A stretch of 37,697 nucleotides of DNA from a plasmid, in the sequence record NZ_CP016506.1; one strand, 5' to 3'. A program made the position numbers and the translations under genes. How positions within the stretch are numbered: the first letter of the stretch is position 1; every line of letters begins with the position of its first letter. The notes under the pieces are model-generated. The model saw nothing but the letters and a program-made list of their open reading frames with translations, was not told the origin of the DNA and ran no database searches. Of the stretch, positions 8,160 to 35,181 are shown one piece after another.

Positions 8160-9365
8160 TTAACCCCCTTTCATTTTCAGTTTATAAATGCCTGAAAAAT
8201 CCAGATCCTGACCGACAATCAGAGTAATAATTTCGCCCTGATTTTTATAAAGCGTTGGCGGAATATTCACACTATTAGAAAATGCTTCGCGTGCTATATC
8301 AGCAAAAGCCTGGCGACTGTTTGCCGTATAGTCGGTCTGGCTGTCCCTGTTGTTCTGTGCAATACCACTGGCGGCCTGACTTAAATCCGGTATCATCCCG
8401 ACCATCATTGCACCAAGAAAACGTTCACTGAAATGAGTGTCAATCCAACCAGAAACACCGGCTTCGCCTAACGCGCCAGCCGCCTGTGAGTCAACCAGGG
8501 GAATATCAATAAAAGGCTTACTGCGAGTACGTAGCTTGTAAGCCATAACAAACACACGCCCTTGTCCATGATTTAAAGACCCGGCCTTATACATCAGTTT
8601 TGCGGCGGTTCCTCTTTCGATAAGTTTTACATTACCGCTGGCGCTGTATATATCGCTGTTGACCGTACATTCCAGTTTCCCCGCCAGGTCAGAAACAAAA
8701 CGCCTGTCCAGTGAACAGGGAATTGATGTCCCTTCCGGGATAAACAAATTTGGGTCATATGGAAGTTTCGTTATTTTCGCCAGTGGCGCAGATTCTGTAG
8801 CCTGTGCGGTTGCTTTTGCTTCATCCTTTTTATCGCTTTCTGGCTCACTGGCCGCAGTATGTAAAACTGACGTTCCCGCTGAACTGCTGCTGTTTCCTGC
8901 CTGGCTGCCATCAAGAGAAACATCAAGTGCACGGCTGAAGCTCTGCTGTTTATTTTCCGGCGGTTCAGTCTTTTCAGAAGAAATGACTTTTTCTTCCTCT
9001 GGTTTCTCTGTTTTTTTCTGTGCGGTATTAAAAGGATCGATATCTTCGCTCAGTCCGGTCTGACGTTTAGCCGCTCCGGTTGCAAGCGGCTGACTTGCGG
9101 GTTTCTCATCCCCTGACGACACAGAACGGATAATGGACGGGATATAATAAACAGAAACACCGGCAGCAAGCAGAAGAAAACCCACGACGAGGATAATCAT
9201 CCCTTTACGTGACTTTTTAAGTTTTTCAATACCAAGCTGCAATGCTGGCTTGCCAGGCTCTTCTTCCGGAGTCTTCCCGGCCTGTTCCAGTTCTTTCTGT
9301 CTGCGTTCCCGTAGCTGCTGTTCAATTTCGGTTGCAGTCGGGATTTTATTTTCCTGTTCAGTCAC
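8160..9365 (-). CDS. pilX10: VirB10-family T4SS protein
   Basis: N-terminal TM segment, a Pro/Glu-rich linker, and a C-terminal beta-barrel domain. Confidence 0.88.
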   Translation of the reverse strand: MTEQENKIPTATEIEQQLRERRQKELEQAGKTPEEEPGKPALQLGIEKLKKSRKGMIILVVGFLLLAAGVSVYYIPSIIRSVSSGDEKPASQPLATGAAKRQTGLSEDIDPFNTAQKKTEKPEEEKVISSEKTEPPENKQQSFSRALDVSLDGSQAGNSSSSAGTSVLHTAASEPESDKKDEAKATAQATESAPLAKITKLPYDPNLFIPEGTSIPCSLDRRFVSDLAGKLECTVNSDIYSASGNVKLIERGTAAKLMYKAGSLNHGQGRVFVMAYKLRTRSKPFIDIPLVDSQAAGALGEAGVSGWIDTHFSERFLGAMMVGMIPDLSQAASGIAQNNRDSQTDYTANSRQAFADIAREAFSNSVNIPPTLYKNQGEIITLIVGQDLDFSGIYKLKMKGG

Positions 9366-10291
9366 TGGATCACCTCTTTCTTAACATCCGGGGATACCGT
9401 ATCTCCGGCTGGTAAACGTACTTTTCCGAAGCCCAGGTTCTCAATCCCCACCACCTGCTCACCAAGACGTAAAACAAAACGCTTATCAACCGGTACGCCA
9501 ACAGCCGTAAAACTCCCGCTCTGTTTAATCACAGGATTGGTAAGAGTCTCCTGCATACCGTTCATCACAAAGACGCTGGGAATTTTCTTTAACGGACTGA
9601 AGCCGAACCAGGTATAACGACCATCGTCATATGCATAATCAGGGCTGATATCCTGGCTGCCTTCAGCAACCCGCTTCCAGTACTGCCAGTTACGGGGCGA
9701 TTTCGCATTTTCCAGGGAACGGTTGATTGCCTGTTCCTCCAGGCGTCTGGCAAGAGCCTCTGTGCGTTTCTTCTCAATTTCGGCCTGTTCCTTCCGGCGT
9801 TCCTGCGGATACTGGTAATTCACCACAAACGCAATTTTCTCCGGCTGTCGGAACGTTCTGGCGTTCAGCTCCATGCTGTAATTACGTTTCGTGGTGCGAA
9901 CAAACAGATTCGTTCGCCAGCGTTCAAGCTCATTTTCCGGGTCAAGAGCAACACTGACGGATTCAGAAGAGGTGTTACCGTTTGCATCCGTATTATTTTT
10001 CTGAACAGTTTGTTTAACAGGACGAACTTCCAGGTATACCAGGTTATCTTCTTTATTAACCGCCCATCCCTGCGGAAAACCGGTTCTGGCACTGATAACT
10101 GTTTCATCTTCATCAAATACCAGTGTGGTGGTGTATCCAACGGCACTGTTAATTATGGTGGTATTATTGGGGTTATAACTGACTATCTGATTGCGTGGGT
10201 CAAAGCGACTGCCTGAAGGAAGAACAGCAGCATTACAGACGTGCGCCGCCATCAGAAGCGCCATAATTAACGCTCCTTTATTCATTTTCAT
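9362..10291 (-). CDS. pilX9: VirB9-family T4SS protein
   Basis: Signal peptide with VirB9/CagX-like domains. Sits between the VirB8 and VirB10 genes. Confidence 0.85.
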   Translation of the reverse strand: MKMNKGALIMALLMAAHVCNAAVLPSGSRFDPRNQIVSYNPNNTTIINSAVGYTTTLVFDEDETVISARTGFPQGWAVNKEDNLVYLEVRPVKQTVQKNNTDANGNTSSESVSVALDPENELERWRTNLFVRTTKRNYSMELNARTFRQPEKIAFVVNYQYPQERRKEQAEIEKKRTEALARRLEEQAINRSLENAKSPRNWQYWKRVAEGSQDISPDYAYDDGRYTWFGFSPLKKIPSVFVMNGMQETLTNPVIKQSGSFTAVGVPVDKRFVLRLGEQVVGIENLGFGKVRLPAGDTVSPDVKKEVIQ

Positions 10292-28268: not shown

Positions 28269-28913
28269 ATGACTTCAAATGTACCAACAAGCTTTGTCCG
28301 CGCTTATCTGAGAGCTTCAACAGCAGAACAGGATGCTTCGCGTGCCCTGGAAACTATCGAGGCTTTTGCCAGGGAAAGAGGCCTGATCATTTGCAGCTAC
28401 TATATTGAGAATGAATCCGGCACCCGTCTTGAGCGCCCGGAACTTTTTCGTCTTCTGAGAGATTGCCAACAAAATGACATTTTGCTTATCGAGGATGTGG
28501 ACAGACTTTCCCGCCTGTCAGGGGAAGACTGGAATACGTTGAAGAAAATGATCCGGCAGAAAGACATCCGGGTTATGGCGGTGAATGTGCCGACGACATG
28601 GATTAATTCTGGTATGAGTGAGTTTGACAGCCGGTTGTTTGCAGCCATTAACGATATGCTGCTGGATATGCTGGCCGCAGTTGCCAGAAGGGACTATGAA
28701 CAACGTCGGGAACGCCAGAAACAAGGGATAGAGAAAGCAAAGAAAGACGGCAAATATAAAGGGCGTAAACCTAATCAAGCCAGACATGATGCAATTATCA
28801 GGTTGATAGAAAGCGGTAGCTCCTGGACACAGGTACAGAAAGTGCTAGGGTGCAGCCGTGGCACAATCAGTAATGCGCTAAAACGTAAAACCGGGCAGAA
28901 ATCCAGTAAGTAG
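28269..28913 (+). CDS. serine recombinase (resolvase/invertase family), multimer resolution
   Basis: N-terminal catalytic motif YLRASTAEQ and a C-terminal HTH (GSSWTQVQKVLGCSRGTI). Confidence 0.85.
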   Translation: MTSNVPTSFVRAYLRASTAEQDASRALETIEAFARERGLIICSYYIENESGTRLERPELFRLLRDCQQNDILLIEDVDRLSRLSGEDWNTLKKMIRQKDIRVMAVNVPTTWINSGMSEFDSRLFAAINDMLLDMLAAVARRDYEQRRERQKQGIEKAKKDGKYKGRKPNQARHDAIIRLIESGSSWTQVQKVLGCSRGTISNALKRKTGQKSSK

Positions 28914-29023
28914 AGGAGTAGGGGGCTAATATACCTGCAAGGCAGGATATTAACTCAGGAGATTGGGGGTGTGGTGTTTAGTCAATGCATTTGAATATTG
29001 TAACTAAAATATGTTTTTATTAA

Positions 29024-29050
29024 AGGCCGGAGGTGGTTAGCCCCCGGCCT
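29024..29050. other. GC-rich stem-loop (aggccggaggtggttagcccccggcct) at 3' end of toxin gene; conserved in second toxin locus
   Basis: Inverted repeat with no U-tract. Followed in both loci by the conserved tagttacgtttccgc. Confidence 0.5.
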
Positions 29051-29067
29051 TAGTTACGTTTCCGCCA

Positions 29068-29151
29068 TCAGCCCATCAACTGGAGAAGGTAGCGAATCAG
29101 TTCAAGAAGTGAGATTAGTGCCCCCAGAACGATGATTGCTTTATCAATCAT
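29068..29151 (-). CDS. dinQ: DinQ-like type I toxin peptide (27 aa, MIDKAIIVLGALISLLELIRYLLQLMG), not in ORF track
   Basis: 22 of 27 residues match E. coli DinQ. GGAG RBS 7 nt upstream. A single TM helix. Confidence 0.7.
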   Translation of the reverse strand: MIDKAIIVLGALISLLELIRYLLQLMG

Positions 29152-29253
29152 CCGTTTACTCCATTATATGGAGCAGACTCCCGATACTTACTCTTACACT
29201 GCCTGTCATATCGGTTGTTCTTCGGTGTTGGTTGAAGACAGTTCCACTCCAGC

Positions 29254-29374
29254 CAGAGCCACCAACTCAGGGCTGGAAAACACAAAAAAGCCCGATTACC
29301 CGTCGGGTTTTTTTGTGCCTGTCGTTTGGCTGTACTTCCGTTTTTTCCCCTTCATTTGAGGGATTTTTCTTTCA
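29254..29374 (+). ncRNA. 120-bp repeat A: candidate agrB-like antitoxin sRNA gene (hairpin ccagcc..ggctgg then bidirectional terminator aaaaaagcccgattacccgtcgggttttttt)
   Basis: 96% identical to 34924-35043. Contains a tgcctgtcg stretch resembling tgcctgtca in the toxin leader. Confidence 0.4.
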
Positions 29375-29835
29375 TTTTTTGTTGCAGCCAATACCGCTGA
29401 TCGCGTTGGCCAACAGAACGATGCCGTTACCGGCATTATCATGAATCCCATTTTTTCAGTAAGTTGCAGCATACAAAGTAATTAAAAAAACGTCATTTTT
29501 TGTTGATGGATGCAGTAGCGGTGGTGTGCTACGTGAAATCTGGGAAATGCTGGCGGGTAAGTGACTCAATTTTTTAATCTCCGCACCTGTTTTTTTGGAC
29601 GTGCCAGCAATTATGACCTGAAGCAGAGGTGCGTCCGACAACAAAAATTCCGATCACCAGAAAAAATTTTGGACATTTTTTCCGATAATGCATTTTTGTC
29701 CAGGGGGATATGAACTACAGGGCAGGGCGAAAAGGAAGCGGTTATCTTGAATATCCATAGGATATGGGCTCATATGCCGGAATAGGGCACCAGATAAAGG
29801 AAATGAATTCAGTGTATGTTGTAACTAATAGGATC

Positions 29836-34489: not shown

Positions 34490-34585
34490 TCAGTCGATGA
34501 ACTGGCGAATCAGTTCCAGAATTGCAATCAGCGCGTTTGCAACGGCGACCACAGCCCTGAGAACGATGATTAACAAATTAATCAT
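34490..34585 (-). CDS. DinQ-family-like type I toxin peptide 2 (31 aa, MINLLIIVLRAVVAVANALIAILELIRQFID), not in ORF track
   Basis: Same architecture as 29068-29151, with GGAG-aaacgg-ATG, a shared ELIR motif, and the same flanking sequences. Confidence 0.6.
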   Translation of the reverse strand: MINLLIIVLRAVVAVANALIAILELIRQFID

Positions 34586-34923
34586 CCGTTTCTCCAGTAA
34601 AACTGGAGGAAATCACCGTTGCTTACTCATACACTGCCTGTCACAACGGCTCTCTCGCATTGTTAGGTGTAGAGTGACCTCCTCCTGCCAGAGCACCGAA
34701 TACAGCACCACCTGTTTATCCAGCCAGGACTTTAAAATCGTTCATACCCGCAGATACGGGAAGGGCAGGATTGCAAGTCAACTACATGACTAACTGACTG
34801 ATTATACGCTACACAAAACACCCGTTACACCACTAAATGTGGTTCCTTAACCACATTTAGTTGCTTTACAGCACCATAGTGAATAAAATGTAAACGTTAG
34901 GTGTAGAGTAACCTTCTCCAGTC

Positions 34924-35043
34924 AGAGCCACCAACTCAGGGCTGGAAAACACAAAAAAGCCCGATTACCAGTCGGGTTTTTTTGTGCCTGTCGTTCGGCT
35001 GTACTTCCGTTTTTCCCCCTTCATTTGAGGGATTTTTCTTTCA
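34924..35043 (+). ncRNA. 120-bp repeat B: second copy of candidate agrB-like sRNA gene with bidirectional terminator
   Basis: 96% identical to 29254-29374. Confidence 0.4.
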
Positions 35044-35181
35044 GTTTTTTATCGGTGACTGTTTCATGGCTGGATTAATGTGGGGGTAAGGTATAGAGCA
35101 TTGCCTAACCTGCAAACTTTCAATACATTAGTAAGATTAGGATTTTTACTTACTCATCCAAACGAAAAAATGGAATGAAAA

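Follow-up and report, generated by a model that had tools for sequence, protein, structure and literature searches.

The dinQ locus of the analyzed plasmid is probably a disarmed, silent remnant of a plasmid-borne DinQ/AgrB type I toxin–antitoxin module, as judged by comparison with related loci. The analyzed DNA, referred to as the window, comprises 37,697 nt of record NZ_CP016506.1. Alignment with intact relatives showed that the locus lacks 187 bp, evidently lost when a crossover took place inside the direct repeat GCTCTGGCTGGAG. Alignments and junction-specific searches demonstrated this deletion and its junction, the recurrence on other plasmids and the loss of promoter sequences. We infer that neither RNA would be made in meaningful amounts, so that the locus would no longer act as an addiction module.

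Plasmid-borne toxins of the DinQ family with AgrB-type antitoxins are already known, have been validated experimentally and are routinely annotated. In E. coli K-12, dinQ occurs together with agrA and agrB (Weel-Sneve 2013, PMC3567139), and a 2016 report described dinQ-like genes from natural plasmids (Kristiansen, PMC5066626). DqlB-AgrB of pOXA-48 was described in 2025 as a plasmid addiction module with a toxic peptide that is neutralised by base pairing (PMC12365149), and the same demonstration, including post-segregational killing, was given in 2025 for DqlB-AgrB of the IncX3 plasmid pOXA-484 (PMC12317039). Toxicity, neutralisation and stabilisation assays concern only the DqlB-AgrB modules of these two plasmids (PMC12365149, PMC12317039). 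DqlB-AgrB homologs were found on 3310 of 15775 typed plasmids and on 53.3% of IncX plasmids (PMC12365149). No paper in the literature searched pairs IncX1 with dinQ. The original prediction had regarded the family as new to conjugative plasmids. This novelty is lost to the publications of 2016 and 2025 and to RefSeq and Rfam, which name both parts.

The dinQ Gene and Its Leader

The 27-codon minus-strand ORF at the center of the original prediction is real. It spans positions 29068-29151, starts with ATG and encodes 27 amino acids followed by a stop codon (MIDKAIIVLGALISLLELIRYLLQLMG). The short, hydrophobic, single-helix peptide scored 55.5 bits with the NCBIfam model NF041472 (toxin_DinQ; cut-off 30) and only 14.3 bits with the DqlB model (cut-off 35). 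The supposed likeness to DinQ was borne out, with 23 of 27 residues identical to K-12 DinQ. The GGAG Shine-Dalgarno (SD) sequence at 29159-29162, 7 nt before the ATG, and the 3' stem-loop, a terminator hairpin at 29023-29051, were likewise present as described. The ORF had been called unannotated; in fact, hundreds of plasmids carry it under the label "dinQ: damage-inducible type I toxin DinQ" (WP_000565612.1), assigned by the RefSeq annotation pipeline PGAP.

The window is an IncX1 conjugative plasmid. The 801 bp around the locus (28900-29700) are 99.9% identical to pB182_37, an IncX1 conjugative plasmid of Salmonella Heidelberg, and match 792 PLSDB records. Upstream of the dinQ remnant, at about 29529-29642 on the minus strand, lies a short fragment of a tyrosine recombinase gene, which a near-identical RefSeq plasmid (L007) lists as a pseudogene. 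The annotation of pB182_37 shows no intact gene from dinQ to the point equivalent to about 30970 in the window.

Of the toxin leader, the 3' portion that begins with the target repeat and runs up to the start codon has been kept (29152-29259, minus strand), as delimited by alignments with K-12, the plasmids pR17.1476_24k (pR17) and pJARS35, and the dqlB locus located elsewhere in the window. Alignments, including one with mafft, showed that the 5' UTR blocks next to the ORF are present, namely the SD stem-loop, the GACAGGCAGUG block and the sRNA target site; the family-invariant block GACAGGCAGTG lies within the retained leader at 29197-29207. The SD-sequestering hairpin CUCCAU-AUA-AUGGAG (29159-29173, minus strand) aligned with the homologous K-12 hairpin. 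It was paired in every predicted fold of the hypothetical transcripts, by minimum free energy and by partition function, and alike in an intact '+44-like' construct, so that the predictions did not discriminate between open and closed states. A lone TATAAT is found in the loop of this hairpin. The sigma-70 promoter of the toxin gene and the full 5' UTR typical of the dinQ/dql family, with inhibitory element and processing region (+1 to about +90), are missing from the locus, as they fall into the 187-bp deletion. In K-12, the region corresponding to the deleted leader of about 90 nt harbours the inhibitory 5' end and the +44 processing site.

With K-12 dinQ-agrA/agrB (PMC3567139, PMC5066626), the window locus shares the GACAGGCAGTG leader block, the SD hairpin, a similar 3' end, and an sRNA stem-loop 1 and terminator of the same Rfam family; the intact plasmid relatives additionally share the divergent genes and the seed/target repeat of ~31-35 nt. 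In contrast, the K-12 locus is chromosomal, with a GTG start, a LexA operator and two sRNAs, whereas the window locus is plasmid-borne, with an ATG start, no LexA operator and one sRNA. A chance ORF with chance hairpins unrelated to DinQ/AgrB is extremely improbable. Although the ORF has only 27 codons and six-frame listings hold many ORFs of that size, the HMM and covariance scores lie well above the curated thresholds, and homology to K-12 runs base by base through leader, SD hairpin, ORF and 3' end; this explanation was therefore ruled out.

The AgrB-Family RNA Element

On the opposite strand, an element with two hairpins and a bidirectional terminator had been predicted about 100 bp upstream of the toxin gene. 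An element with a stem-loop and a bidirectional terminator was found, starting 77 nt from the ATG. Stem-loop 1 and terminator together form an AgrB-family RNA element at 29228-29315 (plus strand), which matched the full Rfam model RF02891 with 69.6 bits (gathering score 40). The proposed family assignment, a DinQ-type toxin beside an AgrB-family RNA element on a conjugative plasmid, thus stands. The bidirectional intrinsic terminator (29281-29317) ends the sRNA on the plus strand. On the minus strand it occupies 29307-29291, directly upstream of what is left of the toxin leader, and would prevent read-through into it.

The RNA element is chimeric, its 5' 'seed' being the antisense of the toxin leader itself. 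In K-12, pR17 and the dqlB locus, a promoter of the type TTGCxx-17-TAxxAT sits 7 nt upstream of the sRNA start. The element at 29228-29315 has no promoter of its own that would set the start at the 5' end of the seed; this DNA is deleted, and toxin-leader antisense has taken its place. Comparison with the two-copy locus of pR17 revealed a single merged sRNA-seed/mRNA-target repeat at 29225-29259. The deletion junction lies inside GCTCTGGCTGGAG at 29247-29259, and the variable part that was kept, TGGAACTG, is of the leader type. Two seed/target copies, by comparison, are present in each of pR17, pJARS35, K-12 and the dqlB locus of the window; separate, near-complementary copies of ~31-35 nt were not found at the window dinQ locus. 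Judged from these alignments, seed and leader target are one and the same DNA there, and an AgrB-type interaction has no separate partner at this locus. The pairing of an agrB-like repeat with the leader, as in the chromosome, was hence not supported, since seed and target coincide and the sRNA promoter is gone.

The stretches containing tgcctgtc, which had been proposed to be shared by RNA element and toxin leader, come down to one direct repeat of 8 nt, with copies at 29200-29207 and 29316-29323. The latter copy is located just past the sRNA terminator and thus outside the sRNA, and it does not represent AgrB-type pairing. Repeated 8-mers are common in this locus, with six observed against 1.8 ± 1.8 in shuffled sequences, and complementarity through this one 8-mer was judged to be at chance level.

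The sequence 3' of the sRNA element is conserved as well. The two loci and pJARS35 have about 65 nt downstream of the sRNA element in common (29316-29380 on the plus strand, and 34985-35050 in the dqlB locus). This flank contains a second plus-strand terminator-like hairpin, CCCTTCATTTGAGGG with a T-run, at 29348-29362, with a counterpart at 35017-35031; tandem terminators thus follow the sRNA genes. The segment 29247-29331 is 96% identical to the dqlB-locus sRNA gene with its 3' flank.

The Rfam score was considered as a test of expressed copies versus remnants and was dropped. Besides that of the window element, remnants scored 60.2 and 68.5 bits, and the intact loci scored 63.4 (pR17), 74.3 (pJARS35) and 62.8 bits (dqlB-locus sRNA). 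The values are similar in both groups and do not depend on the promoter.

Comparison with Intact Relatives

In an alignment with K-12 and the dqlB locus of the window, about 235 aligned columns were absent from the window dinQ locus, all between the sRNA stem-loop and the leader target site. A distant BLAST match, the IncX1 plasmid pR17.1476_24k (NZ_CP100726.1), covered the full 381-bp query over 568 bp of its record. It encodes an identical DinQ protein between the same flanks and carries an additional 187 bp, bounded by two copies of GCTCTGGCTGGAG. This segment holds the sRNA's own seed copy GGAGAAGAACTCTCTTCAACCAACA, the sRNA promoter TTGCAT-17-TATTAT located 7 nt before the sRNA start, the toxin promoter ATGCAA-17-TATAAT, and some 90 nt of 5' leader, in which the conserved TTTTAAGTCCTGGCTG...GGTGGTGCTG block lies. 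The IncX7 plasmid pJARS35 of Yersinia pestis (NC_015054.1) shows the intact layout as well, with a perfect seed/target repeat. DinQ is identical to that of the window in pR17 and differs by one residue in pJARS35, and in both a resolvase lies on one side and the conserved sRNA 3' flank on the other, as in the window. They differ from the window in keeping the 187 bp (more in pJARS35) with promoters, sRNA seed copy and 5' leader. The two-copy layout is common to K-12, the dqlB locus, pR17 and pJARS35, which makes the single-copy state the derived condition.

These comparisons suggest the following course of events. In the intact form, represented by pR17, pJARS35 and, in outline, K-12, toxin mRNA and AgrB-type sRNA would be transcribed divergently from back-to-back promoters, and the 5' ~35 nt of the sRNA would pair with the toxin leader, in which the same sequence recurs. 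The repeats are direct in the DNA because the two genes point away from each other and the seed has to complement the mRNA. A crossover inside GCTCTGGCTGGAG took out the sRNA promoter, the toxin promoter and the ~90 nt at the 5' end of the leader, and joined the sRNA stem-loop and terminator to the toxin leader from the target site onwards, followed by the intact SD hairpin, ORF and terminator. Such a deletion may have been tolerated because expression of toxin and antitoxin was removed in one step. An assembly artefact was rejected as the cause of the one-copy state, since the repeat measures only 13-35 bp and the collapsed form recurs both in metagenome assemblies obtained independently and in 195 records of complete plasmids.

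Recurrence and Decay across Plasmids

A search of PLSDB with the 47-mer spanning the junction returned 169 records with the window-type junction. A junction-specific search for a second type returned 26 records, and the intact 187-bp segment was present in 90. Collapsed alleles thus make up 195 of 285 IncX1-type dinQ loci in PLSDB, about two thirds. The second collapse was found in the IncX1 plasmids L005 and L006 and in the metagenome contigs L010, L011, L014, L016 and L020. Its hybrid repeat combines the sRNA-type AAG..CTC left part GGAGAAGAACTC with the leader-type right flank; as this crossover took place in TCTTCAACCAACAT and not in GCTCTGGCTGGAG, it represents an independent event.

Scanning with the leader block yielded 16 metagenome contigs, which were used in the comparison, and no match among genome contigs. 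All three states were present in the 16 metagenome contigs, along with another kind of truncation in L015 (contig OQVL01020624). There, promoter loss is of a third kind: unrelated sequence abuts the leader at GAAGAACAACCGATAT, and target site, sRNA element and promoters are gone, with the dinQ ORF intact.

Damage to the ORF or to the RNA stem was found in collapsed copies only. A frameshift in L005 and L006 gives MIDKAIIVLGR*, a transposon end follows codon 5 of the dinQ ORF in L011, and in L026 the ORF is lost to an IS26 truncation. A change of CCAGCCC to CCAGTCC, present in 100 of the 169 window-type records, disrupts stem 1 of the RNA element and is not compensated; in the intact pJARS35 sRNA, stem 1 is kept by compensatory paired changes. 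ORF damage amounted to at least three events among 15 collapsed loci, including the window, versus none among seven intact loci, a difference that is not statistically significant. The confinement of damage to collapsed copies is suggestive of decay but does not prove it, given the small numbers and the near-clonal window-type clade. Because 222 PLSDB records are at least 99% identical, a selection test has no power.

A rival view is that the locus is a working type I toxin–antitoxin module: the toxin would be made by read-through or from a promoter that escapes recognition, the chimeric RNA would act as a perfectly complementary cis-antisense antitoxin, and the pair would serve in addiction or stress response. 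We regard this as unlikely. The presence of the window-type allele in 169 PLSDB records, the intact ORF, SD, SD hairpin and both terminators, and an Rfam score that is still above threshold speak for it. Of these points, the Rfam score is independent of promoter presence, and the uncompensated stem break and the broken ORFs of other collapsed copies argue against a working module. It is a point against the preferred reading as a silent remnant that the window and most window-type copies still have an undamaged ORF, SD hairpin and terminator, which could reflect retained function or just a recent event.

Promoter Sequences and LexA Control

A strict promoter scan returned nothing in either the dinQ or the dqlB locus; with mapped K-12 PagrA/PagrB matching at 8/12, it would also miss these promoters. 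A relaxed scan with positive controls and a shuffle baseline was used instead. It recovered K-12 PagrA/PagrB, the promoter pair of pR17 and that of dqlB, and no promoter emerged from the equivalent position of the collapsed dinQ locus in the window. Elsewhere in the collapsed locus, two marginal 8/12 promoter-like matches were observed, fewer than the 3.7 ± 2.3 expected from shuffles. The first, TTGGCT-17-AAAAAT (29391-29363, minus strand), is located upstream of the terminator. The second, GTGAGA-16-GATGAT (29109-29136, plus strand), is antisense to the dinQ ORF and, with 8/12, at chance level; this promoter-like site is created by a synonymous TCG to TCA change in the window allele and is absent from pR17.

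The existence of these weak matches and of the lone TATAAT in the SD hairpin loop, and the possibility of read-through past the terminator, count against the remnant reading. For a working module, the site at 29109-29136 could yield an antisense RNA that ends at the AgrB terminator. Against a working module stand the position of the homologous promoters of both genes within the deleted 187 bp, promoter-like matches at or below chance, the terminator just upstream of the leader on the toxin strand, and the missing LexA box.

The LexA box CTG-N10-CAG was absent from the window dinQ locus, pR17 and pJARS35, and the K-12 control was found (15/20 match). The plasmid copies can therefore not be called 'SOS-induced' by analogy with K-12, and SOS control of plasmid dinQ was rejected for the plasmid loci examined. 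The proposed working addiction or stress-triggered module could thus not be upheld: the locus has lost its toxin promoter together with the initial ~90 nt of leader and lacks a LexA box, and collapsed relatives carry frameshift, transposon and IS26 damage.

The Apparently Complete dqlB/AgrB Module of the Same Plasmid

A second module of the family lies at 34490-34984. The gene dqlB (34490-34585, minus strand) encodes 31 amino acids (MINLLIIVLRAVVAVANALIAILELIRQFID) and scored 72.4 bits with the NCBIfam model NF041473 (DqlB; cut-off 35); in pB182_37 it is also annotated, 5.4 kb from dinQ. Relaxed scan and alignment placed the dqlB promoter GTGTAA-18-TATAAT (-10 at 34801-34806) and 5' leader at 34661-34830 on the minus strand, with the target repeat aligned at 34661-34694. 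The AgrB-family sRNA gene of this module (34861-34984, plus strand) comprises the promoter TTGCTT-17-TAAAAT at 34861-34889 and the sRNA at 34897-34984, which exceeded the Rfam gathering score of 40. HMM match, covariance-model match, both promoters and separate seed and target are thus all present. By these features, the complete dqlB/AgrB pair is likelier than the dinQ locus to be the working DinQ-family addiction system of the plasmid. The modules of pOXA-48 (IncL) and pOXA-484 (IncX3) resemble the window dinQ locus as plasmid DinQ-family toxins with a divergent AgrB-type sRNA pairing with the 5' UTR, but belong to the DqlB subfamily and are intact and functional; their true counterpart in the window is the 34490-34984 locus, not the dinQ locus.

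The only CTG-N10-CAG in either locus, TCCTGGCTGGATAAACAGGT, is found at about 34708-34727, in the transcribed conserved GUCCUGGCUG...ACAGGUGG block of the dqlB leader. The equivalent dqlB site on pTF2 was scored as a LexA box (PMC12211044). In the dqlB leader of the window, this motif may belong to an RNA structure instead of being an operator.

In L020 (contig UOZF01000058), a third, partial AgrB-type sRNA gene with flank was observed at 9277-9471. It measures 197 nt, is 92% identical to the dqlB-locus copy and lies about 1.2 kb from the dqlB module of L020, so that solo sRNA copies also exist on IncX-type DNA.

The presence of a second sRNA raises the alternative that dinQ is an orphan toxin checked in trans: low-level read-through dinQ RNA would be paired and destroyed by the dqlB-module sRNA, and toxin would be released if this sRNA falls. 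We consider this quite unlikely. Predicted cognate sRNA/leader duplexes ranged from -57 to -65 kcal/mol (K-12 -59.6, dqlB -56.9, pR17 -63.8, pJARS35 -64.9). The dqlB-locus sRNA was predicted to form a 23-bp duplex of -56.3 kcal/mol with the junction region of the collapsed dinQ leader, via the shared stem-loop sequence, versus -25.6 ± 3.7 kcal/mol in the one shuffle control, made for the dqlB sRNA seed against the window dinQ leader. The high identity of 29247-29331 to the dqlB sRNA gene and its flank fits such pairing, since read-through RNA would be complementary in sequence to the conserved AgrB stem-loop and terminator, and both the window and L020 pair a collapsed dinQ with an intact dqlB module. 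However, control in trans needs transcription through the bidirectional terminator with no evident promoter, and the variable seeds of the two modules mismatch, the dqlB sRNA reaching -35.8 kcal/mol on the intact pR17 leader versus -56.9 kcal/mol on its own target. Among the few loci with enough flank, collapsed dinQ was found with dqlB in the window and L020 and with a dqlB-like module (78% identity) in L011, and intact dinQ without dqlB in pR17.

Implications

Type I toxin loci that persist in an inactive state after insertions or rearrangements are known from hok/sok. Decayed chromosomal hok/sok copies in E. coli K-12 were reportedly described by Pedersen and Gerdes in 1999. The window dinQ locus differs from these in that its apparent inactivation came about by exact excision of the DNA separating the seed/target repeats of the module itself, with simultaneous loss of both promoters, and has recurred.

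For annotation, the finding calls for caution, as a PGAP DinQ label or an Rfam AgrB match says nothing on expression. Both labels sit on a locus with deleted promoters in 195 PLSDB records, and surveys by ORF or covariance-model matches would therefore overcount functional modules on IncX1 plasmids.

We hold it an evenly balanced proposition that the seed/target direct repeats constitute a built-in deletion hotspot, at which one short-homology crossover would strip both promoters and the module would be shed without killing the host, as would have happened at least two times in IncX1. If so, the DinQ module would be dispensable or costly beside other addiction systems, such as dqlB/AgrB and the RelE-type system annotated on related IncX1 plasmids. 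The repeats on which the pairing of toxin mRNA and antitoxin depends would then offer a one-step, non-lethal route of loss that has been used repeatedly, which bears on how plasmids may escape or trim redundant addiction systems.
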